DNA of 64,000 nucleotides from an uncultured Spirochaetota bacterium (GCA_963820525.1 CAWGAA010000001.1:704001-768000); one strand, 5' to 3'; numbered from the stretch's first letter, positions 17-63,371 are shown. Numbers and translations are program-made. The notes: generated from the letters alone by a model not told the origin.

Positions 17-132
17 ACATAACATGCTGTTGGAGCAGACCGCTTAGGCTACGCGTCGTTACTAATTCATACGTGTGCTAAAGTAATTGTACCTGTATGA
101 TGCTGCGCGGCTGCTCAACAGCGTCGTTATAT
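17..132 (+). repeat. attC site, GAGCAG/CTGCTC subtype (example)
   Basis: R'' ACATAAC at 17-23; L'' GTTGGAGCAG pairs with L' CTGCTCAAC leaving one extra G; R' GTT at 126. Identical to the attC at 17159-17270. Confidence 0.93.
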
Positions 133-415
133 CCATCTAGATTTATATTGATTAGCGAATAGACAACGAATTATTAATTCAATAATAGAAGATAAGACGC
201 TTTTCAATAGCTTTTTGCCCATGATGGCGTTGACATTGCTCCGTAAGGATGGCGGTGTTGTACTACATTGCTTGCTTTTCTTTAGTTTCAATACATGGCA
301 CGTCACCTCGTCTTGCCAACACCGATTGCATTCAACGGCTCGGATCAAGCTCCTTCAATTGATTCGATAGACCTTTTCTGCTTTCCTCAACGCCATCATA
401 CTGGATGGATATAAC
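126..415 (+). other. Family A gene-less cassette, representative copy
   Basis: Terminal IR GTTATATCCATC/GATGGATATAAC; internal IR ATGATGGCGTTG (221-232)/CAACGCCATCAT (388-399); no reading frame conserved across copies. Confidence 0.9.
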
Positions 416-523
416 ATGCTGTTGGAGTTGTCCGCCTAGGCTACGCGTCGTTACTTATAGCTACGTTTGCTAGGGTTCCTTCGGTTGCTGATTCGGGGCG
501 GCAACTCAACAGCGTCGTTATCT
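409..523 (+). repeat. attC site, GAGTTG/CAACTC subtype (most common; example)
   Basis: ATATAAC ATGCT GTTGGAGTTGTCCGCC...GGGGCGGCAACTCAAC AGCGTC GTT. Confidence 0.93.
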
Positions 524-3774: not shown

Positions 3775-4339
3775 AGTCTCCTACGGGGAGAAACCCCCTC
3801 GTCTTTAGACGAAGACTTTAGTAGGCTTGCGGTACGATGAAGCAGTATCGAAAAGCGTCGCACTGCGTCTATGATTTGAAGTATCATATAGTGTGGATCA
3901 CCAAGTACCGCAAGCCAGTGTGGGGGAAAGAGATAGGAACCCGCGTAAGAGATCTGATACGAATGATTTGCGCGAGCCTGGACGTAGAGATCGTGAAAGG
4001 GAACATCAGCCGCGATCACGTGCATCTGCTGCTGAGCGTGCCGCCGACTCTATCGGTATCCAGGCTCGTGCAGCGCATGAAGGGGCTGACATCACGGAAG
4101 CTGCTCATGGAAAACAAAGGGTTGAACAAAACATTCTGGGGCAGGCATCTTTGGGCCCGCGGGTATTTCGTGGCGAGCACAGGGAACGTGACCGAAGAGA
4201 TGATCGCCCGCTACATCGAGAATCAGCAGGACACAGAGCGGGACCAAGATGCCGACTTCAAAGTAGAACCGTGATGTCGGCCCCAGTCGGCTTTAGCCGA
4301 CAAGCGCAAACCCCCCGACTTAAGTCGGGGGTGGTTTAG
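3775..4339 (+). mobile_element. IS200-like element (tnpA only) in a family A cassette
   Basis: Interrupts TTAG|AAATGAAG relative to the intact twin at 908. Subterminal hairpins TCGTCT-TT-AGACGA and CCCCCGACT-TA-AGTCGGGGG. Confidence 0.9.
3837..4274 (+). CDS. tnpA: IS200/IS605 Y1 (HUH) transposase
   Basis: YHIVWITKYR, DHVHLL (HUH), LWARGYF, RYIENQ. Confidence 0.95.
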   Translation: MKQYRKASHCVYDLKYHIVWITKYRKPVWGKEIGTRVRDLIRMICASLDVEIVKGNISRDHVHLLLSVPPTLSVSRLVQRMKGLTSRKLLMENKGLNKTFWGRHLWARGYFVASTGNVTEEMIARYIENQQDTERDQDADFKVEP

Positions 4340-4700
4340 AAATGAAGTAAAGAATTATTAATTCAATGATCTTTGATAAGACGTTTTTCAATAGCTTGTT
4401 TGCACATGATGGCGTTGGCATTGCTCTGGAAGGATGGCGATGTTGTACTACATTGCCTGCTTGTCTTTAGTTTCAATGCATGGCACGCCACCTTGGCTTA
4501 TTATCACCGATTACATTCTACGGCTTAGATCAAGCTCTTTCAAATGATTCGCTAGATCTTTTCTGCTTTCCTCAACGCCATCATACTGGATGGAGATAAC
4601 ATGTCGTTGCAGCTGACCGCCCAAGTTACGCGTCGTCACTTGAAACTACGCGTTCTCAGGTATTTCATTTTCTTGAGGCGGGGCGGCAGCTGAACTCCTT

Positions 4701-8034: not shown

Positions 8035-9066
8035 GTATCAACAGAGCGGCCTTTCGGAGATGCGCCATCCAACAAGTCGTTGCAGCTGACGCCTAAGATT
8101 TCGTCTGAAAGATACAGCTCTGTTTCATAGAACCGTCGGGGCTGTGGTGACTCGGCGGCGCAGCTGAACTCTATGTTATATCCATCTAGATTTATATTGA
8201 TTAGCAAATAATCAACGAATTATTAATTCAAGAATAGAAGATAAGACGCCTTTCAATAGCTTGCTTGCCCATTATGGCGTTGGCATTGTTCTGCAAGGAT
8301 AGCGGTGTTGTACTACATTGGTTGCTTGTCTTTAGTTTCAATTTATGGCACGTCACCTTGGCTAATTGTCACCGATTACATTCAACGGCTCGGATCAAGC
8401 TCTTTTAATTGATTCGATAGATCTTTTCTGCTTTCCTCAACGCCATCATACTGGATGGATATAACATGCTGTTGGAGTTGACCGCCTAGGCTACGCTTCG
8501 TTACTAATAACTACGCTAGCTGAAGTATTTGTACTTGGCTGATTCGGGGCGGCAACTCAACAGCGTCGTTACATCCACGCTAATAATTTCTTTGAGAGAA
8601 TATTTTGCCTATTCTGTTTTGAATTATTCAAAGCAAATAAAGAATTCGATTTAACAATCTTGCAGGTTTTACTTTGTTGAATTCCTCTGATACTTTTGCG
8701 CGGGCCATGTAAGTTCCCATTGGAACAGCTCGCGCCCATTAGCTGAAAGGGCATTATCAACTTTTAACATCATTTTCTTTAGCTATGCCCGAATTCTATC
8801 ATCAATCAACTAACCTTATATTTTCTTCATATCGTGAAGCTTCTTTGCTGGCCCGCGCATATTGTTCTGTTTCCGCGTAGATGTAACATGCGGTTGGAGC
8901 AGACCGCTTGGACTGCTAGTCGTTACTGATTCTTCCTCGTGTTAAATCAAATGAACCTATATGATGCGGCGCGGCTGCTCAACCGCGTCGTTATGCATAC
9001 TTGAAAACTACTATAGGTGCTTTTATTTACACTATAGGTTGGCTTGAGGTATTGGAGGAACCGACA

Positions 9067-27911: not shown

Positions 27912-29558
27912 GTGGTGAACGAAAAACTGGGAGAACTACCGAACAACGTCGAACAGCTGCACGAGCTGGTTCGACGGATTGTCAGGGAGCACGATGAAGA
28001 GCTCGCTCGACTGCAGGCCGAGTTGGAGAAGGAGCGCAGCGAACGAATCGAGCACCAAAACAAGGCCATAGAGCATTTCGAAGAGCTGCAGCTTCTGCGG
28101 CGCAAGCTCTTTGGCCGCAGCGCCGAGAAGCTATCCGAGGAGGAGCAAAAGCAGCTTCTTCTTTTCAACGAGGCGGAGGATATCGTATTCAGCCAACAAC
28201 AGGAGCCTGCCGCCGAGGAGCGCATTGAGGTAAGGGCGCACACGCGGGTGAAGCGGGGCAGAAAGCCGCTGCCGCCTGAGCTTCCCCGTGTGGAGATGGT
28301 CCACGACATAAGTGAAGAAGACAAGAAATGTGCCTGCGGACAGGAGCTTACACGTATCGGAGAGGAAAGCCTCGAGAAACTTGAGGTCATCCCGCCCCAG
28401 ATACGGGTACGGCGGCACCTGAGACCCCAGTACGCCTGCAAGGCCTGCGAAGGCTCCGGGGATGAGGACCGTCCCGCGGTGCGGATCGCCCCGGCGGTGA
28501 GGCAGCTTCTTCCCAAGAGCATCGCCTCACCGGCACTGGTGGCCTACATAATGACGGCGAAGTTCTGCGACGCCCTGCCGTTCTACCGCCAAGAGAAGCA
28601 GTTTCAGCGCATCGGAGTAGATATCAGCCGCCAGGACATGGCCAACTGGAGCATCGCGGTATTCCATAGGCTTGCGCCGGTTATCGAGCTACTTCGAGCA
28701 GAGATTCGAAGAGGCCCGCATGTAGGAATCGACGAGACGACCCTTCAGGTGATGGGGGAGCCGGATCGCCCCAATACTTCAAAGTCGTATATGTGGGTGT
28801 TCCTGGGAGGCAGTCCGAAAAGACCCGTGGTTGAGTTTCAGTATCATCCCACACGATCCGGTAAGGTTCCCCTTGAGGCTCTGCGGGGTTACAACGGCTT
28901 CATCCAGACTGATGGCTATGACGGATATAACGAAGTGGGAAGCCAACCCGGAGTCATTCACGCGACCTGTTGGGCGCACTCGCGTAGAAAGTTCTTCGAG
29001 GCCAAGGAGGCATCCAAGCAGGCGGGAAGTGTCGATGAGGCCCTGGCACGAATCGATGCTCTGTTCAGGATCGAGCGGACCTTAAGAGCTCAAGAGCTTT
29101 CACCGCAGGAGTTCGTCCGCCAACGGCGAGAGCAGGCCGAACCCGTGTTGGAAAAGCTCAAGGCGTGGCTTCACAAGCGTCAGGGGCAGGTTCCCCCGTC
29201 TCTGCTTCTGGGCAAAGCGATCGCCTACACCATCGAGCAGTGGCCCAAGATGATTCGGTACCTGGACAGTCCCGATTTGGGTCCGAGTAATAACGCGGTC
29301 GAGCAGGCGATACGGCCGTTTGTGGTGGGAAGAAAAAATTGGATGCTATCTGGGAGCCCCGCGGGCGCCGAAGCCAGTGCGGGGTGGTACAGTATCATCG
29401 AGACGGCCAAACTGAACGGCGTGGAGCCCTACCTATATCTTCGCTACATTCTCTCGCGGCTTCCTGAGAGCGACAACCCTGAGGATTATCGTGAGCTGCT
29501 TCCCTGGAATGTTCCACGCGAGTCTCTGCTGAACTTTGATTCCGGTCATTTGTTCTGA
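27912..29558 (+). CDS. tnpC: IS66 DDE transposase TnpC
   Basis: Coiled coil, zinc finger, IDETT, QTDGYDGY, CWAHSRRKF, NNAVEQAIR. Confidence 0.95.
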   Translation: MVNEKLGELPNNVEQLHELVRRIVREHDEELARLQAELEKERSERIEHQNKAIEHFEELQLLRRKLFGRSAEKLSEEEQKQLLLFNEAEDIVFSQQQEPAAEERIEVRAHTRVKRGRKPLPPELPRVEMVHDISEEDKKCACGQELTRIGEESLEKLEVIPPQIRVRRHLRPQYACKACEGSGDEDRPAVRIAPAVRQLLPKSIASPALVAYIMTAKFCDALPFYRQEKQFQRIGVDISRQDMANWSIAVFHRLAPVIELLRAEIRRGPHVGIDETTLQVMGEPDRPNTSKSYMWVFLGGSPKRPVVEFQYHPTRSGKVPLEALRGYNGFIQTDGYDGYNEVGSQPGVIHATCWAHSRRKFFEAKEASKQAGSVDEALARIDALFRIERTLRAQELSPQEFVRQRREQAEPVLEKLKAWLHKRQGQVPPSLLLGKAIAYTIEQWPKMIRYLDSPDLGPSNNAVEQAIRPFVVGRKNWMLSGSPAGAEASAGWYSIIETAKLNGVEPYLYLRYILSRLPESDNPEDYRELLPWNVPRESLLNFDSGHLF

Positions 29559-36687: not shown

Positions 36688-39366
36688 TATTCTTTGTACT
36701 ATTTATCAAGCATATAGTAGCCGCATAACATGCTGTTGGAGTTGACCGCCTAGGCTACGCTTCGTCACCAATAACGACGCGCGCTAAAGCCTTTGTACTT
36801 GGATGATTCGGGGCGGCAACTCAACAGCGTCGTTACATTCAACGCTAAGATAGATCTTTTGGAATATTCCCTATATTCTGCGTAGAATCACTCAAGATAA
36901 AGAAGACTATACGATTTAGCTTTATATGTTACTTTGTCGAATTCTTGTTTTACTTTTGCGCGGGCCATGTAAGTTCCCATTGGAACAGCTCGCGCTCATT
37001 AGCTTAAAGGGCATTATTACCTTTTAAAATCCTTTTATTTCACTATTGCTTGAATTCTATCTTCAATCAACCAACCTTGTATTTTGTTCCTATCTTAGAC
37101 TTCTCTGTCGGCCCGCGCATATTGTTCTGTTTCCGCGTAAATGTAACAAGTCGTTGCAGCTGACCGCCTGGGCTACGCGTCGTTACAAATAATTACGCGT
37201 GCTGTAGCATATACACTTTTCCTGATTCGGGGCGGCAGCTGAACTCCATGTTACATTCAACGCTAAGAATTTGTAGGAAGATTCCCTTTGTTTTTCTATT
37301 ATAACTCAAGATAAATGAAGACTATTCAATTTAGCTATATTGCATATTTTACCTCGTTGAATTCTTGTCTTACTTTTGCGCGGGCCATGTAAGTTCCCAT
37401 TGGAACAGCTCGCGCTCATTAGCTGAAAGGGCGTTATTAACCTTTCTGGAATCGTATTCTTTCGCTATTGGTTGAATTCTATCATCAATCAATCAACCTT
37501 GTATTTCGTTCATATCTTAGACTTCTCTGTTGGCCCGCGCATATTGTTCTGTTTCCGCGTAGATGTAACATTCGGTTGGAGCAGACCGCTTAGCCTACGC
37601 TTCGTTACTTATTCCTAGGTGTGTTAAAGCAATTGTACCTGTATTATGCGGCACGGCTGCTCAACCGGGCGTTACATCCACGCTAATAATTTCTTTGAGA
37701 GAATATTTTGCCTGTTCTGTTTTGAATTATTCAAAGCAAATAAAGAATTCGATTTAGCAATCTTGCAGGTTTTACTTTGGTGAATTCCTCTGATACTTTT
37801 GCGCGGGCCATGTAAGTTCCCATTGGAACAGCTCGCGCCCATTAGCTTAAAGGGCATTATTAACCTTTTTAGAATCGTATTCTTTCGCTATTGGTTGAAT
37901 TCTATCATCAATCAACTAACCTTGTATTTCATTCATATCTTAGACTTCTCTGTTGGCCCGCGCATATTGTTTTGTTTCCGCGTAAATGTAACATTCGGTT
38001 GGAGCAGACCGCTTAGCCTACGCGTCGTTACTGATTGTTACGCTTGCTAAAATAATTGTACCTGGATGATGCGGCGCGGCTGCTCAACCGTGCGTTACAT
38101 TCAACGCTAAGAATTCTTTTATAGGAAGATTCCCTTTGTTTTTCTATTATAACTCAAGATAGATGAAGACTATTTAATTTAGCTATATTGCATATTTTAC
38201 CTCGTTGAATTCTTGTCTTACTTTTGCGCGGGCCATGTAAGTTCCCATTGGAACAGCTCGCGCTCATTAGCTGAAAGGGCGTTATTAACCTTTCTGGAAT
38301 CTTATTCTTTCGCTATTGGTTGAATTCTATCATCAATCAATCAACCTTGTATTTCGTTCATATCTTAGACTTCTCTGTTGGCCCGCGCATATTGTTTTGT
38401 TTCCGCGTAAATGTAACATTCGGTTGGAGCAGACCGCTTGGGCTACGCATCGTTACTAATTGCTACGCTTGCTAAAATAATTGTACCTAGATGATTCGGC
38501 GCGGCTGCTCAACCGTGCGTTATATCCAATCTAGATTTATATTGATTATCGAATAGGCAACGAATTAGTAATTCAATAAAAAGAGATAATACGTGTTTCA
38601 ATAGCTTGTTTAACCATGATGGCGTTGGCATTGCTCTGGAAGGATGGCGGTGTTGTACTAATGTTGCTTGCTTGCTCTTAGTTTCAATACACTGCACGTC
38701 ACCGTGGCTTAATGGTCAACGATTTCATTATAGGGCTCGGATCAAGCTCTTTCTCTTGAAACAACAACTCTTTTCTGTTGTCCTCAACGCCATCATACTG
38801 GATGGATATAACATGCTGTTGGAGTTGTCCGCCTAGGCTACGCGTCGTTACTTATAGCTACGTTTGCTAGGGTTCCTTCGGTTGCTGATTCGGGGCGGCA
38901 ACTCAACAGCGTCGTTATATCCGATCAAATTTATGGTGATTAGCAATGAATTAAATAATTATTAATTCAATAATATTGGAGAAGAGGTTTTTCAATAACT
39001 TGCTTTTCCATGATGGCGTTGTCATTTCTCTGGAAGATTGGCGGTGTTGTACTACATTTCCTGCTTATTGCTAGCTTCAATACCCTGCACGTCACCTTGG
39101 CGTATTATCACCGATTACATTCAACGGCTCGGATCAAGTTCATTTTATTGATTCGATAGCATTTTTTCTGCTTTCCTCAACGCCATCATACTTGATGGAT
39201 ATAACATGCTGTTGGAGTTGTCCGCCTAGGCTACGCGTCGTGACTTATAGCTACGCGCTGTAAAGCCTTTGTACTTGGATGAATCGGGGCGGCAACTCAA
39301 CAGCGTCGTTATCTCCATCTAAAATTATGCTTATTAGCAATGAAACAATGAATTATACATAGCGTC

Positions 39367-39909
39367 CTAAGTAATTGCGCATAGACGACGTAATGTTTCA
39401 TTTGGAGCCTCCCACTGAGCGAAGCGGTCTTCAACCGCGGACGTGACATCGCTCATAGTAGGGAAGTATCTGTTATGCAGACAGAGCCGTCTGGTGAGCT
39501 TCCACATCCTTTCGATTGGGTTCAGATCGGGACTATACGGCGGCAGATAATCGAGTATGAAAGATGCACTGTGCTCCTCGCGCCACTGCTTGTGGAGCTT
39601 TGCATGGTGGTATCTAGCATTATCAGTGATCACGACGATGCGCCTTTGACTCTTTGAAGTTCTGAAGCGCAATTGCTTCATGAACACGAAGAATGTATTC
39701 GCGTCGAAACTATCCTCTTCGCGTTTGAAGAAGAATTTGCCGTCGCGCAGACGAACGGCACCGAAGTATCCCACGCTCTTTCGCCCGGGATAATGTAACA
39801 GTACCGGATCTTTGACTTCGGGTGGAACCCACATTCGGCATCGTGAGCCGTACTGCTGAAAGTGTACCTCATCCGTCGCCCACAAATCTATCTCTTCATC
39901 CAGCATCAA
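39367..39909 (-). CDS. IS630 transposase, DDE part
   Basis: TDEVHF, ITDNARYH, LPPYSPDLNPIERMW. Confidence 0.9.
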   Translation of the reverse strand: MMLDEEIDLWATDEVHFQQYGSRCRMWVPPEVKDPVLLHYPGRKSVGYFGAVRLRDGKFFFKREEDSFDANTFFVFMKQLRFRTSKSQRRIVVITDNARYHHAKLHKQWREEHSASFILDYLPPYSPDLNPIERMWKLTRRLCLHNRYFPTMSDVTSAVEDRFAQWEAPNETLRRLCAIT

Positions 39910-40304
39910 CGCCTTGAGTTTTTTTTATAATCGGTCTGGCGAGCCGGATCGGCTCGCGCAATTATTGGGCGAGGCTTGCGTAGTCGGAAGTTGAGTTGTC
40001 GAAAGACGCGTTGACATTGACGTACACCCAATCTGACTTTATAGCGCTGTACAATGAAGGCGGAGAGTGTCTTTCCATCCCATAGGTTACCAGACAATCC
40101 AGCAGCAGTTGGTGATTGTCGAAGAGCGCGGCTTACTTCTTGTATTTGCTCAGGTTTGAGGCGTGTGGGTCGTCCAGTTCGGTCGCCTTCAACAATGCCC
40201 GCGAGTCCCTCCGCCTCGAAGCGGCGAATCCAATACTGCACGGTTCGGGGTGCATCGCCAAGAAAATGCGCAACCTCAATACAGCTCATTCCCTGGGCTA
40301 CTAG

Positions 40305-42033
40305 CCCGGATTTCTCATACTCCTACTATTAAAAAGCCTTTCGCCCTGGTATAATTGCTTTGCAAACAACAAAATACACCAGAACAGAAAGGCTTCAAGA
40401 TGCAAACAGACTGTATTCCAAACCTCTTCGGATTTCAAGACCTCGGGGACAGAAAAGTCATCACAAGCTTCGACGGCGGAATGATCAGTTCGGATGCAGG
40501 GGCACTACTCCTTCGTGAAGTCGCACTGACAACGGACTATTTGCGTCAGTTCGCAGACTGTTTCTGTGATTTCCGTAATCAGCGGTTCGTCGAGCACAGC
40601 GTGCGGGAGTTGGTGAGCCAGAAGGTGATCGGGTTGTGCCTGGGCTATGAGGACACCAACGATCAGGACATGCTGCGCCACGATCCGCTTTTCGCCACCC
40701 TTTGCGGCAAGGCCGATCCCAGCGGGCAGGATAGAAGTCATGCCAGGGACAAGGGCAAGGCATGTGCGGGGAAAAGCACGCTCAACCGGCTTGAAACCTG
40801 TGAGGGGTTTTGGAAGATCACAGGGGCGAAAAAGATCGTTAGCGATGAGACAATGATCGAGAAGTTCTTCGTGAAGTCCTTCCTGAAAAGCTACCCGGGG
40901 CGACCCAAGCAAATCGTGCTGGACCTGGATGTGACGAACAACGAGCTTCACGGCAAGCAGGAGGGGCGGTTCTTCCATGGACACTACGATTGCTACTGCT
41001 ATCTGCCGCTGTACATCTTCTGCGGGGATTACCTGTTGTGCGCGAAGCTGCGCACGGCTGACGTGGACCCTGCCAAGGGAGTGACGAAGGAGCTGGAACG
41101 TATCGTGGGCATGATCCGCTCGCGGTGGAAGCAGGTTCGAATCATCATCCGTGGGGACAGTGGCTTCTGCCGGGATGAGCTGATGAGCTGGTGCGAGAAG
41201 CATGGCCTTTTCTATGTCATTGGCCTGGCGAGAAATACGCGACTTGTCCAGCGGATCAAGAAACAGCTTCGACTGGCTTGTGTGGAGCACGTACGCACGG
41301 GAAAGCCGGCTCGCCGCTTCAGCAGTTTCGGGTATCGTACCCGAAAGACCTGGAGCCGTACCCGACGGATTGTGGCCAAAGCGGAGTACACCGAGGGCAA
41401 GGAGAATCCGCGTTTTATAGTGACCAATCTCCCGGCTGAGCTCCATGATCCCGGGGAGCTCTACGAGGATGTCTATTGTGCTCGCGGCGAGATGGAAAAC
41501 CGCATCAAGGAGCAGCAGCTCTACCTTTTCGCGGACCGTAGCTCATGCTCGCTGATGAAGGCGAACCAGCTTCGACTTTGGTTCTCTGCCGTTGGATATG
41601 TGCTGATGAGTGAGTTCCGTCGACGTGCTTTGCGCGGCACGGAACTTGCCAACGCGACCTGCCAGACGATCCGGTTAAAGCTTTTCAAGATAGGCGCCCT
41701 GGTGAGAGTGAGTGTTCGCCGTGTGCTTATAAGTATGTCGACAGGATATCCGTATCGAGAACTTTTTCTGACGGCATATCGCGCACTTCAAGCCTCGCCT
41801 CCGTTATTGAACTGAAGGAACAGGAGGGTACCGCTTGCAATGCCAAGGCAGAGGTCTGTCCTGGAAATATGAAAACTGCCTGGCAGGAGGCGTATCAGGC
41901 GGAAAGCGCACATTCGCCAGGGATTCTGCCGGGCTTTTTGCTTCGGTAAATAGACGTTTCTCTGGTAACAAGAATATTTACCCGTTTCTATCGCAAACCG
42001 GCTAAAACCGGTGAGGGGTATGAGAAATCCGGG
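40305..42033 (+). mobile_element. IS1380 family element nested in IS630
   Basis: 16-bp TIR CCCGGATTTCTCATAC; CTAG TSD at 40301-04 and 42034-37. Confidence 0.93.
40400..41815 (+). CDS. IS1380 family transposase
   Basis: FDGGMISSDAGALLL, LDLD, RGDSGF, YCARGEMENRIKEQQ. Start taken as ATG 40400. Confidence 0.93.
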   Translation: MQTDCIPNLFGFQDLGDRKVITSFDGGMISSDAGALLLREVALTTDYLRQFADCFCDFRNQRFVEHSVRELVSQKVIGLCLGYEDTNDQDMLRHDPLFATLCGKADPSGQDRSHARDKGKACAGKSTLNRLETCEGFWKITGAKKIVSDETMIEKFFVKSFLKSYPGRPKQIVLDLDVTNNELHGKQEGRFFHGHYDCYCYLPLYIFCGDYLLCAKLRTADVDPAKGVTKELERIVGMIRSRWKQVRIIIRGDSGFCRDELMSWCEKHGLFYVIGLARNTRLVQRIKKQLRLACVEHVRTGKPARRFSSFGYRTRKTWSRTRRIVAKAEYTEGKENPRFIVTNLPAELHDPGELYEDVYCARGEMENRIKEQQLYLFADRSSCSLMKANQLRLWFSAVGYVLMSEFRRRALRGTELANATCQTIRLKLFKIGALVRVSVRRVLISMSTGYPYRELFLTAYRALQASPPLLN

Positions 42034-54967: not shown

Positions 54968-55532
54968 TATTTAATAGTTTTTAATTATAAGATTTTTCGG
55001 GGGCGTCATAACATGCTGTTGGAGTTGACCGCCTAGCCTACGTGTCGTGACTTAGAGCTACGCGCGGTAGAGCCTTTTGTACTTGGATGACTCGGGGCGG
55101 CAACTCAACAGCGTCGTTATATCCATCTAGATTTATATTGAGTAGCAAATAAGCAACGAATCATTAATTCAATAATAGAATATAAGACGCTTTTCAATGG
55201 CTTTTTTGCCCATGATGGCGTTGGCATTGTTCTGGAAGGATGGCGGTGTTGTACTACATTTGGTTGCTTGTTTTTAGTTTCAATGTATGGCACGTCACCT
55301 TGGCTTATTGTCACCGATTACATTCGACGGCTCGTATCTAGCTCTTTCAATTGATTCGATAGATCTTTTCTGCTTTCCTCAACTCCATCATACTGGATGG
55401 ACATAACATGCGGTTGGAGTTGTCCGCCTAGGTTACGCGTCGTTACTGATTGTTACGCTTGCTATGGTTCCTTCGGTTGCTGATTCGGGGCGGCAACTCA
55501 ACCGCGTCGTTACACGGCGCTAATTCAATCGC

Positions 55533-58076: not shown

Positions 58077-59162
58077 CCTGAATTCAACCTCGAAGTGCAA
58101 CGATTCTTATTTTTCATGATACACCTCCTGGAGCGTTCTGTAGCCGTGCCGTTTTCTAGGCCTTGAGTTTAGGCTAAAGGCAATCTGCTCGCATAGAGCT
58201 TGAGTGACATCCCTCATGCAGGTTTTCTTTGGAAGATACTGACGGATCAAACCGTTTAGGTTCTCGTTGCTGCCTCGCTCCCAGGAATGATAAGGCGTTG
58301 CAAAGTAGCATTTCAGTTCGGAATGATCCTCCAGGGGCCTGTAGTCATGGAATTCTGTACCGTTGTCCAAGGTGAGTGTCTTGAAGTTGGCTACGTTCTC
58401 CCTAATAGCCGGCAGTGCTGCCTCTGTTACTGAGGCTGCTGTTCTTGAGCTCATTTTCCTTATGATAGCAAATCCCGACTTTCGTTCCACCAGAGTGAGG
58501 ATGCAGTGATGAAGGTCCCTGCCCATGACGGTGTCGCCCTCCCAATGACCCAATTCTTTACGAGTTTCAACCTCTGGAGGCCTCGTTGAAATATGGCGTT
58601 TTCCTGGGAGAATTCCTCTTGAATCCCTTGAATTGTAACGTTTTCGCCGCAGTTTCGGCATGATTCGAAGGTTCTTAAATAGCGTTCCTCCATGTTTCTT
58701 ATCGTTCAGGATGTACTTGTAGATGGTCTCGTGACTGATTGTGAATGATCCATTCTTCTTCTGGTAAGCAGATATCTGTTCAGGGCTCCATTTCTCTTTC
58801 AAAAGAACAGTTACTTGCTGCATTTGTTCTGGGCTGAAGCGCGAACCGCGCCTTTCACGTCGCCGTCTTGCAGTTGAATAGCTTTGGGCAAGCTCAGCTC
58901 GGTACCTCAAGTCATGGTTAGTTCGGTTTCGATGAAGTTCCCTGCTGATCGTGCTAGCTGAGCGACCTAGCTCACGTGCAATGTCAGCTTTAGATCTTCG
59001 GCTTACTAAAAAAGCTGTTATGGTGTATCTTTCTTCTCGAGAGAGTTGGTGATAGTTATTCATGTATGAATCCCCTTTCTTGGCGGAAAATGGAGGCATA
59101 CAATAATATCTCAGCTCTCTCATTTTTAATCCATATCGTTGCGCTTACTATTTGAACCTGCG
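58077..59162 (-). mobile_element. IS30 family element beside an attC R'' box
   Basis: Imperfect IR TTCAA.....AAG(T/C)GCAACGAT; CTG duplicated at 58074-76 and 59163-65 (ends +/-1 bp). Confidence 0.85.
58107..59063 (-). CDS. IS30 family transposase
   Basis: YHQLSREER HTH, WSPEQI, SHETIY, GHWEGDT, DNGTEF, WERGSNENLNGLIRQY. Confidence 0.94.
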   Translation of the reverse strand: MNNYHQLSREERYTITAFLVSRRSKADIARELGRSASTISRELHRNRTNHDLRYRAELAQSYSTARRRRERRGSRFSPEQMQQVTVLLKEKWSPEQISAYQKKNGSFTISHETIYKYILNDKKHGGTLFKNLRIMPKLRRKRYNSRDSRGILPGKRHISTRPPEVETRKELGHWEGDTVMGRDLHHCILTLVERKSGFAIIRKMSSRTAASVTEAALPAIRENVANFKTLTLDNGTEFHDYRPLEDHSELKCYFATPYHSWERGSNENLNGLIRQYLPKKTCMRDVTQALCEQIAFSLNSRPRKRHGYRTLQEVYHEK

Positions 59163-61629: not shown

Positions 61630-63371
61630 CCCGCATTTCTCACAAACGGCACTCTGCGCAGTCTAATCATCATGAGGCGGGGCTCAACTTTGAAAAACGG
61701 TCTATTCCTTGCTGTCAGCCCCTACACGTAGATCGATTTCGTGACCCGAGTCAGTTCAATCGCCCGATTGAGCGCACTTTACAGTTCATAAGGGAAGATT
61801 CGGCGACTTCAGGACAGTCTTCTCCCAATAAACTACTCAAGACAAGGCTCAATACACGCTAACCCGATTGAAGGGAGAGTTCGTGAATACTCAGAATCAC
61901 CTGACGGAAAAGCTCTTGATATGGATAACCGCTTGCGAAGCTCACATAGATCCGGCGCACACTGACGCGCACCTGTGCGCCAATCTTCAATAGCTTCAAA
62001 CGAATCGTGTCGCACTGTGCCGAGGCCAGCTCTGTCCCCTTCAAAGCGGTCCTTCTGAGGGCACTCATGATTACGTAGGCCGCAGAGGAGAACCACAACC
62101 GAAGCTGATTCGCCCTCATCGTGGCGGAACTGGTTCGATCTGCAAAAAGGTAAAGCTGCTGTTCTTTGATACGATTCTCCATGTCTCCGCGAGCACAATA
62201 GAGCTGCTCGTACAGCTGCTGGCCAGGGAAGCGGTCCTGCATAAGTGAAGTCACCACAAACCGAGGGTTCTCTCCCTTGCGCAGATACTCCGCCTTGGCG
62301 ACAACACGTCTGCTTTTCGACCATGTCTTTTTCGTCCGATAGATCAGCTCCGCGTACTTTCGCGACGGCTCACCAGTGGACAGATACTGCCTGCGGGCTT
62401 CTGAAAGCTCCTTGCGGATCTTGCGTAAGAGGCGTGCGTTTTTCGCGATTCCGAACAGGAAATCCACGTCGTTGGACTCGCACCACACCATGATCGCTTC
62501 CCGGCAGAACCCGCTGTCGGCCCGCACAACAATACGTACCTGCGGCCATCGCTCACGGATCTGCGCAACGATCCTCGCCAACTCCTTCTCGGCACCCGAA
62601 CATGCGTCTATATTGGAGGGACGTAGCTTCGCACATAAAAGATGATCCCCGCAGAAGATGTACAACGGCAGGTAGCAATAACAATCATAATAGCCATGAA
62701 AGAACCTGCCCTCTTGATTGCCGTGCAGAGGGTCGTCGGTTGCATCCAGATCCAACACGATTTCTTCAGGAGCTTGCTCATAACTGGCCAGGAATGTGTT
62801 CACCAGGAACATCCCAACCATTGTTTCGTTCACCGTGATTTTCTTGTATCGATGCGTAGAGAGGCTTGCCCCGCCGGCGGTCTCAAGCCGATTCAGCGTG
62901 CTTTTTCCGGCAAGGGCTTTGCCTCTGTCCCGTTTCTGCCTCCTCGTTTCCCCGTTGACATCGAGTTTCCCGCAAACGGCAGCCAGAACGGGATCTTTGC
63001 GCAGCTGGTCGTGATCGTTGAGGTCTTCGTATCCCAGGCAAATGCCGAATACCCTTTGGCTTATCAATTGCTCGATGGAATGCTCGATATAGCCTTTCTC
63101 TCGATAGTCTGTGAAACAGCCCGCGAATGCTTTGATGATGCCTGTGGCGCGTTCGACCTCTCGAAGAATGAGAGCGCCGGCATCGGAACTGATCGCGCCT
63201 CCGTCGAAGTTTCCGACTACCTTTTTCTTGCCAAGGTCTTGAAAGCTAAACAGGGATGGTGTACAGTCTGTTTGCATCGTATAGCCTTTCTGTTCTGGTT
63301 TATTTTGTTTGTTGCAAAGCAATTATACCAGAGCGAAAGGCTTTTTCATATCCATTTGTGAGAAATGCGGG
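61630..63371 (-). mobile_element. Second IS1380 family element, inserted inside an attC site
   Basis: 17-bp TIR CCCGCATTTCTCACAAA; CTAG TSD at 61626-29 and 63372-75 within ACCGCCTAGGCTACG. Confidence 0.94.
61859..63277 (-). CDS. IS1380 family transposase
   Basis: FDGGAISSDAG, LDLDATDD, RADSGF, YCARGDMENRIKEQQ; related to, but distinct from, 40400-41815. Confidence 0.93.
   Translation of the reverse strand: MQTDCTPSLFSFQDLGKKKVVGNFDGGAISSDAGALILREVERATGIIKAFAGCFTDYREKGYIEHSIEQLISQRVFGICLGYEDLNDHDQLRKDPVLAAVCGKLDVNGETRRQKRDRGKALAGKSTLNRLETAGGASLSTHRYKKITVNETMVGMFLVNTFLASYEQAPEEIVLDLDATDDPLHGNQEGRFFHGYYDCYCYLPLYIFCGDHLLCAKLRPSNIDACSGAEKELARIVAQIRERWPQVRIVVRADSGFCREAIMVWCESNDVDFLFGIAKNARLLRKIRKELSEARRQYLSTGEPSRKYAELIYRTKKTWSKSRRVVAKAEYLRKGENPRFVVTSLMQDRFPGQQLYEQLYCARGDMENRIKEQQLYLFADRTSSATMRANQLRLWFSSAAYVIMSALRRTALKGTELASAQCDTIRLKLLKIGAQVRVSVRRIYVSFASGYPYQELFRQVILSIHELSLQSG

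Follow-up and report, generated by a model that had tools for sequence, protein, structure and literature searches.

A conserved long-range inverted repeat in a gene-less cassette family of a Spirochaetota chromosomal integron

Family A, a repeated element of an uncultured Spirochaetota bacterium, is the ~285-nt cargo of an ORF-less integron cassette whose whole unit, attC site included, measures 391 nt. Highly paralogous non-coding cassettes are already known from Vibrio, and the most conserved feature of the cassettes described here is an internal closing stem, made of two complementary 12-nt arms. We tentatively propose, with more doubt than conviction, that the arms form a closing stem in the single-stranded DNA or RNA of a selfishly amplified non-coding cassette and matter for its persistence or copying. 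The stretch of DNA analyzed, which we call the window, is 64,000 nt long (C1:704001-768000) and lies wholly inside the integron array.

Family A belongs to a large chromosomal integron

The array occupies C1:683478-824382 (~141 kb, ~174 cassettes), directly downstream of an integron integrase gene, and its GC content is 43.8% against 60% for the 5.05-Mb genome. The integrase gene (C1:682092-683030, minus strand) matches TIGR02249 at 410.7 bits (cut-off 265), and the Atlas neighbours of the integrase are integron integrases. Its open reading frame spans 411 amino acids (C1:682089-683324, minus strand) and, as the TIGR02249 match begins ~100 residues in, an N-terminal extension seems to be present. 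The sites that identify the cassettes are the attC sites, folded single-stranded hairpins that are recognized by IntI. An nhmmer profile made from the repeats that follow family A places 90 of 91 matches in the window, and 179 of 180 in C1:683758-824382, on the plus strand. Of the 85 distinct attC sites listed, 48 were aligned (A2); they show the canonical R''-L''...L'-R' layout with AAC and GTT invariant, and by eye the L-box words co-vary (GTTGGAG with CTCAAC, GTTGCAG with CTGAAC, GTTGAAG with CTTAAC); a covariance model, R1, was built from these window sites. Neighbouring-cassette genes with Pfam matches (GNAT, methyltransferase, BD-FAE hydrolase) are on the plus strand, which is thus the top strand. 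The units are integron cassettes by their adjacency to an integrase gene and attI, by the single orientation of their attC sites and by a crossover that falls between the G and the TT of GTT (G/TT).

Clustering of the 174 cassettes places 61 in family A, 30 in family B, 8 in C and 5 in D, with 44 singletons among the rest, and the gene-less families A, B and D together hold 96 of the 174 positions. The first cassette, which begins at C1:683478 next to attI, where ...AAATG is followed by TTATATCC, is a family A member, and the first ten positions read A.AAAAAA.A. The cassette next after a family A member is itself of family A in 24 of 60 cases, close to the 35% expected from the frequency of the family.

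Several features of the wider array and genome were also recorded. A second integron integrase gene (C1:1954228-1955157, 448.6 bits) is accompanied by a short run of attC-like matches (1956603-1963662), and no family A copy is found in that region (C1:1954228-1963662). From the positions of dnaA (C1:2616238-2617554) and of the cumulative GC-skew extremes (minimum at ~2.5-2.6 Mb, maximum at ~0.25 Mb), replication forks should traverse the array (0.68-0.82 Mb) leftwards, in which case the attC bottom (minus) strand would serve as lagging-strand template. Loot et al. 2017, in the portion of that paper available, report such an orientation only for arrays of at most 22 cassettes. The array's own GC skew is slightly positive, opposite to that of its flanks, which could reflect a recent inversion or an assembly error. 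Insertion sequences of several kinds are present in the array (IS200-like Y1 transposase, IS630-like DDE_3, DDE_Tnp_1_4, IS66 and IS30-like), with spans in the window at 3837-4274, 27912-29558, 39367-40289, 40355-41815, 58107-59123 and 61859-63322, and in three family A copies, those with left arms at 4406, 42250 and 52322, such insertions have cut short the AT-rich 5' part. One 6.8-kb "cassette" (C1:800192-806984) contains a 1,697-nt perfect inverted repeat, probably two inverted insertion-sequence copies.

Anatomy of one family A cassette

One family A cassette of the window occupies positions 127-517 on the plus strand, a span given by a tandem period of 391, by the attC borders and by identical copies that end there; Tandem Repeats Finder returns periods of 390-397 wherever family A copies adjoin. 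It is preceded by the attC of its neighbour (17-132, plus strand; R'' ACATAAC at 17-23, R' GTTATAT at 126-132, crossover between G126 and T127), which R1 scores at 134.7 bits over 13-139 (E 2e-32) and which nhmmer also matches. Its own attC follows (409-523, plus strand; R'' at 409-415, L'' GTTGGAG, L' CTCAAC, R' at 517-523), is included in A2 and scores 124.1 bits over 405-530 (E 9e-30). A first, sequence-only reading of the window had taken 126-415 as the family A unit. The repeated span is real, but it starts at the G of the preceding R' and ends with the final base of the R'' that belongs to the cassette itself, and it is therefore the cargo of a 391-nt cassette and no independent repeat unit; the integron context had been missed.

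Three self-complementary elements can be recognized in the cargo. The left arm (ATGATGGCGTTG, 221-232) and the right arm (CAACGCCATCAT, 388-399), both given on the plus strand, are discussed below. Outside them, the R' box with a 5-nt extension (GTTATATCCATC, 126-137, plus strand) makes 12 pairs with the R'' box and its own 5-nt extension (GATGGATATAAC, 404-415, plus strand), which lies 4 nt past the right arm. In 8 of 26 distinct alignment rows the A-T pair at position 6 of this outer stem has become C-G, both sides having changed. By eye, cassettes throughout the array show extended complementarity of their first bases to those that precede their own R'', and the outer stem thus belongs to the attC system and not to family A. 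The third element is an AT-rich palindrome in the 5' region (GAATTATTAATTC, 168-180), whose symmetry persists while its sequence changes: a perfect stem of at least 6 bp within a 34-nt window occurs in 47 of 61 copies, compared with 8.3% of shuffles, in several sequences and registers. Some subfamilies have GAATTATTAATTC swapped for other perfect palindromes (TTAAGGA-A-TCCTTAA, TGATTTAA...TTAAATCA or ATTGAATTA-T-TAATTCAAT).

Protein coding was rejected as an explanation for the cargo. The open reading frames that start at the two ATGATG words are cut differently among copies (4-49 codons) by indels of 1-3 nt and stops: of 35 window copies, 12 have a left-arm frame of 49 codons and the others one of 21-46, and the minus-strand frame at the right arm has 4-32. 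There is no 3-base periodicity, and substitutions by codon phase in the longest indel-free block are 2.64, 2.18 and 2.40 per site. With no conserved ORF, no codon pattern, conservation along the whole length and 61 copies, family A is an ORF-less paralogous cassette family.

Single cassettes are copied within the array

BLAST finds 66 family A copies, 62 of them full-length, all on the plus strand, all within C1:683478-818155 and all in the same cassette frame, with none elsewhere in the genome. The copying is recent: the median best identity of a family A copy to another is 99.2%, and 26 pairs are 100% identical over the whole unit. In these pairs the identity stops 1-6 nt upstream of G/TT in 22 of 26 cases and 2-9 nt downstream of it in 24 of 26, and among pairs that are at least 99% identical the flanking cassettes differ on both sides in 40 of 41. 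Fully identical pairs are also present in family B (eight, with identity likewise ending within a few bases of G/TT) and, one each, in D, E, F, K and L. Because whole-unit identity ends at the integrase crossover point, we conclude that single cassettes are copied by site-specific recombination; compared with integrase-type copying, gene conversion that merely happened to stop at exact cassette borders is far less likely.

Other records of sequence exchange and change in the family were noted. Family A copies are mosaics, with identity breakpoints that cluster, as judged without a null model, beside conserved blocks including the arms. Contigs from four DNA runs (three studies) carry family A pieces together with neighbouring cassettes, but the joints at the borders have sides of <30 nt, which makes such read-contig joints unreliable. 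Substitutions in the cargo are strand-asymmetric on the plus strand (77 G>T against 33 C>A; 59 T>G against 33 A>C).

The arms are the most conserved 12-mers of the cargo

The sequence itself confirms the inverted repeat that had been reported, ATGATGGCGTTG at 221-232 and its exact complement at 388-399. A search of the window with at most one mismatch returns 71 arm matches, compared with 0.33 expected from shuffles: 36 left arms on the plus strand and 35 right arms, the 36th right arm lying beyond the window end. The start-to-start spacing is 166-170 in all 35 pairs. The arms had been described as near-invariant with a single exception, and while their invariance stands and the exception is found (CAACTCCATCAT, 55380-55391), the window holds three exceptions, as the left arms at 8271 and 10814 both read ATTATGGCGTTG. 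Among the 61 unique copies genome-wide, the left arm has its consensus sequence in 57 and the right arm in 58. One arm is changed in seven of the 61, which corresponds to five mutation events, and none is compensated in the other arm. All five events fall on a G of the plus strand; two of the five are transitions, both of which would keep a G-T pair on the minus strand, numbers too few to use. Two of the events are each present in two identical cassettes with cassette-exact borders (691036 and 759117; 712176 and 714719), which shows that one mismatch does not stop copying.

Conservation was assessed on a maximum-likelihood tree of the 61 unique copies with a length of 4.14 substitutions per site. 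The arms are the two 12-column windows of the cargo with the fewest changes, three parsimony changes on the left and two on the right, where the cargo mean is 2.03 changes per column (291 columns). Two non-overlapping 12-mers with at most three changes each arise in 0.2% of 20,000 column permutations (P 0.002), and the arms are therefore kept better than the rest of the cargo. The ~155 nt that they enclose, which had been thought to vary freely, do not: the interior has 2.03 changes per site against 2.96 in the 5' region. Overall, 109 of the 291 cargo columns (37%) never change and mean column identity is 89%, with the invariant columns arranged in blocks that are parted by variable linkers.

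The arms are predicted to pair, with no compensatory changes

In minimum free energy predictions the arms pair with each other in 51 (RNA, plus strand), 54 (RNA, minus strand), 57 (DNA, plus strand) and 57 (DNA, minus strand) of the 61 copies, and the mean pair probability of the arms is 0.85-0.92 across RNA and DNA parameters and both strands. For one near-consensus copy the fold z-scores are -4.46, -4.25 and -4.39, values that distinguish neither strand nor molecule type. The available text of Weinberg et al. 2017 (PMC5737381) holds that single-stranded DNA and RNA motifs are bioinformatically indistinguishable, and this applies to the family A stem too. A closing stem, one of the readings first offered for the arms, is thus thermodynamically plausible, but evolution lends it no support: across 26 distinct rows of the cargo alignment, 10 of the 12 arm pairs never vary and the other two depart through unpaired cells only, and in the 61 unique copies seven one-sided changes stand against no compensated ones. 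It is the sequence identity of the arms itself that seems to be constrained. The consensus RNA fold consists approximately of the two stems, with a covariation term of only -0.95 kcal/mol; both-sided changes are confined to the R-box stem and one other pair, and no helix with covariation support was found inside the 155-nt interior.

The near-copy of the left arm that had been placed ~27 nt downstream is present (GATGGCGGTGTTG, 248-260). This box 2 (GGATGGCGGTGTTG, 247-260, plus strand) resembles a left arm into which 3 nt have been inserted; 43 of 61 unique copies keep it unchanged, and it has taken 14 parsimony changes over its 14 nt. As a competing second arm it fares poorly. The alternative helix of box 2 with the right arm has 6 + 4 bp around a 3-nt bulge, its equilibrium probability is ~1% and exceeds 0.3 in just one of 61 copies, and it shows no covariation. 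A switch-like RNA or single-stranded DNA, with two exclusive helices of comparable stability, is therefore not supported at equilibrium.

We also modeled the bottom strand of family A DNA together with attC. In a circular model, run on 12 of the 61 copies (every fifth) with 15 shuffles each, pairing of the attC R and L boxes is equal for natural, cargo-shuffled and arm-reversed cassettes, and help from the arms in attC folding was rejected for these 12 copies. In linear models of five array stretches, arm reversal raises the mean R-box pairing probability in two (from ~0.49 to 0.75 and from 0.48 to 0.87), lowers it in two (from 0.68 to 0.43 and from 0.63 to 0.45) and leaves one flat (0.15 and 0.14), and reversal of a control 12-mer, done in four of the five, has little effect in three and a smaller effect in the fourth. 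As the sign of the effect varies, the arms have no consistent influence on attC in the folding models.

A cis-acting fold as the tentative explanation

Our tentative proposal combines these observations as follows. Family A spreads inside one sedentary chromosomal integron through integrase-mediated copying of single cassettes. When a cassette is single-stranded, whether as the attC bottom strand at replication, as an excised circle or as a transcript, its arms would pair and close a hairpin domain of ~180 nt, with 4 nt between the 3' arm and the extended R''/R' stem of the same cassette's attC. The fold may be a cis-acting feature that is required for continued copying or keeping, and copies that lose it would cease to propagate, leaving the arms near-invariant. 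The data show the cassette nature of family A, its recent copying, the conservation of the arms and their thermodynamic pairing; that such a fold forms in vivo, on one of these molecules, and that it matters we infer. In favour of the proposal are the integron context, the recent copying, the non-coding cargo, the conservation and predicted pairing of the arms, the 5' palindrome and the like layout of families B and D described below. Against it are the uncompensated arm changes, the copying of cassettes with one arm mismatch, the attC models and an interior in which no helix covaries.

The proposal has a partial parallel in attC itself, an imperfectly related idea, in that complementary arms fold in single-stranded DNA in attC and would do so in family A. 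By eye, the family A arms contain GTTGG...CTCAAC, words of the array's L''/L' boxes, and 4 nt separate the right arm from the R'' extension. In contrast to attC, the family A stem is perfect and lacks both extrahelical bases and an unpaired spacer, its loop is ~155 nt long, and the polarity of GTT and AAC relative to the loop is reversed. That the arms are a vestigial attC was rejected: with filters off over positions 1-2900, the best R1 score near an arm is 5.6 bits (E 2.4), whereas six whole true attC sites in the same stretch score 106.6-134.7 bits and a seventh, truncated where that stretch ends, scores 21.9 bits.

Unrelated gene-less families share the layout

Families B (30 copies; in the window at 36836-37261 and ~19 further places) and D (five copies, e.g. 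439-440 nt) are gene-less cassettes of ~420-440 nt. They are homologous to one another (local score 42 against a null of 20.6 +/- 2.6) and have no detectable relation to family A (18 against 19.1 +/- 2.4). Both contain a GC-rich repeat, GCGCGGGCC/GGCCCGCGC, whose arms are 152-155 nt apart and whose right arm ends 22-23 nt before R''; the two arms are present in 27 and 29 of 30 B copies and in all five D copies. An interior near-copy of the right arm, CTCGCGCC, is exact in 11 of 30 B copies and in five of five D copies. B and D have thus kept the arms and the interior near-copy, while much else has diverged until it can barely be aligned. Of the 77 cassettes that belong to none of A, B and D, nine have a perfect repeat of at least 10 nt that ends in the last 45 nt of cargo, and these comprise seven A or B copies interrupted by insertion sequences, one A/T run and one inverted insertion-sequence pair. 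A GC-rich repeat that closes the cargo is therefore a property of the amplified gene-less families and not of cassettes generally, those that bear genes having none. It is conceivable, although we consider it improbable, that A and B/D are integron parasites in which a private GC-rich closing stem by attC compacts the single-stranded cassette and raises its own integrase-mediated copying; on this view they have come to fill over half of the array's positions.

The comparison also bears on the alternative first offered for the three boxes, namely that they are binding sites for one protein. Invariance of the arms without compensation fits that idea, but in the unrelated B/D families the same architecture is built from other arm sequences, which favours a structural reading over one box-binding protein.

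Possible protein-binding sites or promoter parts

The best-surviving rival, which we rate as rather doubtful, is that the arms and box 2 are recognized as duplex DNA by a sequence-specific protein, be it the integrase, a host factor or a repressor, or belong to promoters, making family A a promoter or operator cassette. The arms are near-invariant in sequence with no compensated changes, and two antisense sites resemble promoters. An interior site of the TTGAAA-17-TAGAAT class (330-358, minus strand, a consensus match alone, present in this cassette as the weaker TTGAAG-17-TTGAAT) keeps its 17-nt spacer in 61 of 61 copies and passes the consensus rule in 24 of 61, as does ACGACA-16-TATGAT, whose -10 overlaps the outer end of the right arm. 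At its outer end each arm has a -10-like hexamer, which reads TATGAT (minus strand) in the right arm and CATGAT (plus strand) in the left; by eye, the left arm has no usable -35. A consensus scan finds no sense-strand site common to at least four of 61 copies, and promoter-like matches in positions 1-1320 are at chance level (three against 2.8 expected).

Gene-less cassettes with promoter activity are on record. The accessible text of Blanco et al. 2024 (NAR, PMC11014356) reports such activity for most of the gene-less cassettes tested in Vibrio, and that of Tansirichaiya et al. 2019 (Sci Rep, PMC6557892) describes sense, antisense or two-way promoters in ORF-less cassettes of Treponema. Family A resembles these promoter cassettes, as far as the two texts describe them, in being short, gene-less and part of a large array and in having promoter-like hexamers, here mainly antisense; it differs in being known by consensus matches alone and in having no sense-strand consensus site. 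A section heading of Blanco et al. 2024 states that the promoters of gene-less cassettes cannot be identified in silico, which weighs against calling them here. Since the first cassette after attI is a family A member, an antisense promoter there would read towards intI, and both the text available of Tansirichaiya et al. 2019 and a review (PMC8876359) suggest that integrase expression could rise through an antisense promoter placed in the first cassette. Successive family A cassettes, as in 24 of 60 cases, would nevertheless be redundant as promoters, and a second protein would be needed to account for the different arms that B and D have in the same layout. Outside the array the arm 12-mer occurs just five times, never as a pair, and a role for these five sites as targets in trans was rejected, as none is at a credible gene start.

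A possible structured RNA

It is unlikely, in our estimate, that the cargo is an RNA gene or a structured leader whose transcription starts at Pc or an internal promoter. In that case the arms would form the terminal stem of a ~180-nt RNA, the conserved blocks of the interior would be its functional sequence, and it would perhaps act on integron or cassette expression. The arrangement of about one third of the cargo columns in invariant blocks with variable linkers would suit such an RNA, as would the terminal 12-bp stem that is predicted for RNA on both strands and one predicted interior helix in which the variable positions are transitions that keep G-U on the plus strand. For a Xanthomonas integron, the text available of PMC8876359 and PMC6557892 cites an ORF-less cassette that encodes a trans-acting sRNA. 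Against these points, Rfam 15 gives no match at gathering score in the 64 kb and none at E up to 5 in positions 1-1320, and both the small covariation term and the restriction of both-sided changes to the R-box stem and one other pair speak against a conserved RNA fold. Furthermore, an RNA of benefit to the host would not need 61 diverged intact copies.

A possible mobile-element relic

Correia/NEMIS, ERIC and MITEs are small foldback repeats with terminal inverted repeats, and family A is like them in having a non-coding multicopy unit of ~180 bp, short perfect inverted repeats and possible promoter hexamers. The unit, however, is confined to one cassette family with constant flanks, no target duplication is evident by eye, and its movement is that of the cassette that holds it, through integrase crossover at G/TT. 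A MITE or foldback transposon as such was rejected, since all 66 BLAST copies are in the array and in the same cassette frame. We think it very improbable that the arms are a functionless relic, such as the terminal inverted repeats of a foldback or MITE-like element made uniform by recent amplification and gene conversion: many copies are indeed very recent, the mosaic breakpoints beside conserved blocks are what recombination among copies would give, and gene conversion was proposed for paralogous non-coding cassettes in the text available of Boucher 2006 (PMC1382264), yet the arms are kept in all subfamilies across a tree of 4.1 substitutions per site, their conservation is rare among column permutations, the arm-to-arm segment is never found outside family A cassettes, and B and D are barely alignable while sharing the same arms with one another.

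Relation to known non-coding cassettes

BLAST finds family A in none of 40 related genomes, and it has no hit in viral contigs and no match in plasmids, sets from which its own genome is possibly masked. An exact-arm pattern search of 185,579 species genomes, in which the same masking may apply, returned one match, in GC-rich DNA with no other resemblance by eye. The JGI metagenomes yielded one further true family A copy, on a 1,011-nt contig.

The closest parallel is in Vibrio, where, in the available text of Boucher et al. 2006 (BMC Evol Biol 6:3, PMC1382264), non-coding cassettes make up 6-49% of arrays, are conserved along their whole length and have no homologues outside vibrios, and one V. 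vulnificus family has 45 and 34 copies in two strains. Family A likewise is ORF-less with its own attC and has its paralogues in one array (61 here, 45 in V. vulnificus CMCP6); it too is conserved along its whole length, shows no codon-like pattern and has no homologues outside close relatives. The hypotheses that the same text raises for the Vibrio cassettes, selfish elements or a promoter or RNA function, are those considered here. There are also differences. The host of family A has a 60% GC genome from freshwater or wetland metagenomes, and no sequence relation was seen; identical copies with exact borders here reveal an ongoing copying of single cassettes; and an internal long-range inverted repeat is not mentioned in the part of the Vibrio account available. 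The terms "inverted repeat" and "secondary structure" are absent from the main texts of PMC11014356 and PMC6557892, "hairpin" is absent from that of PMC6557892, and one supplementary text file of PMC11014356 contains neither arm 12-mer. In the literature apart from subscription journals and most supplements, we came upon no account of a long-range repeat that is conserved within non-coding cassettes, and the internal stem appears to be undescribed so far.

Implications

Large chromosomal integrons are viewed as gene banks, whereas in this array 96 of 174 positions are gene-less and are still being copied. If the arms are instead promoter or operator parts, family A would be a new type among the known promoter cassettes. 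If closing stems do act in cis, cargo, beyond attC, can tune recombination, and selfish cassettes could shape the arrays that contain them. The stem would then provide a mutable feature that bears on the question raised in 2006 of whether paralogous non-coding cassettes are selfish or useful.
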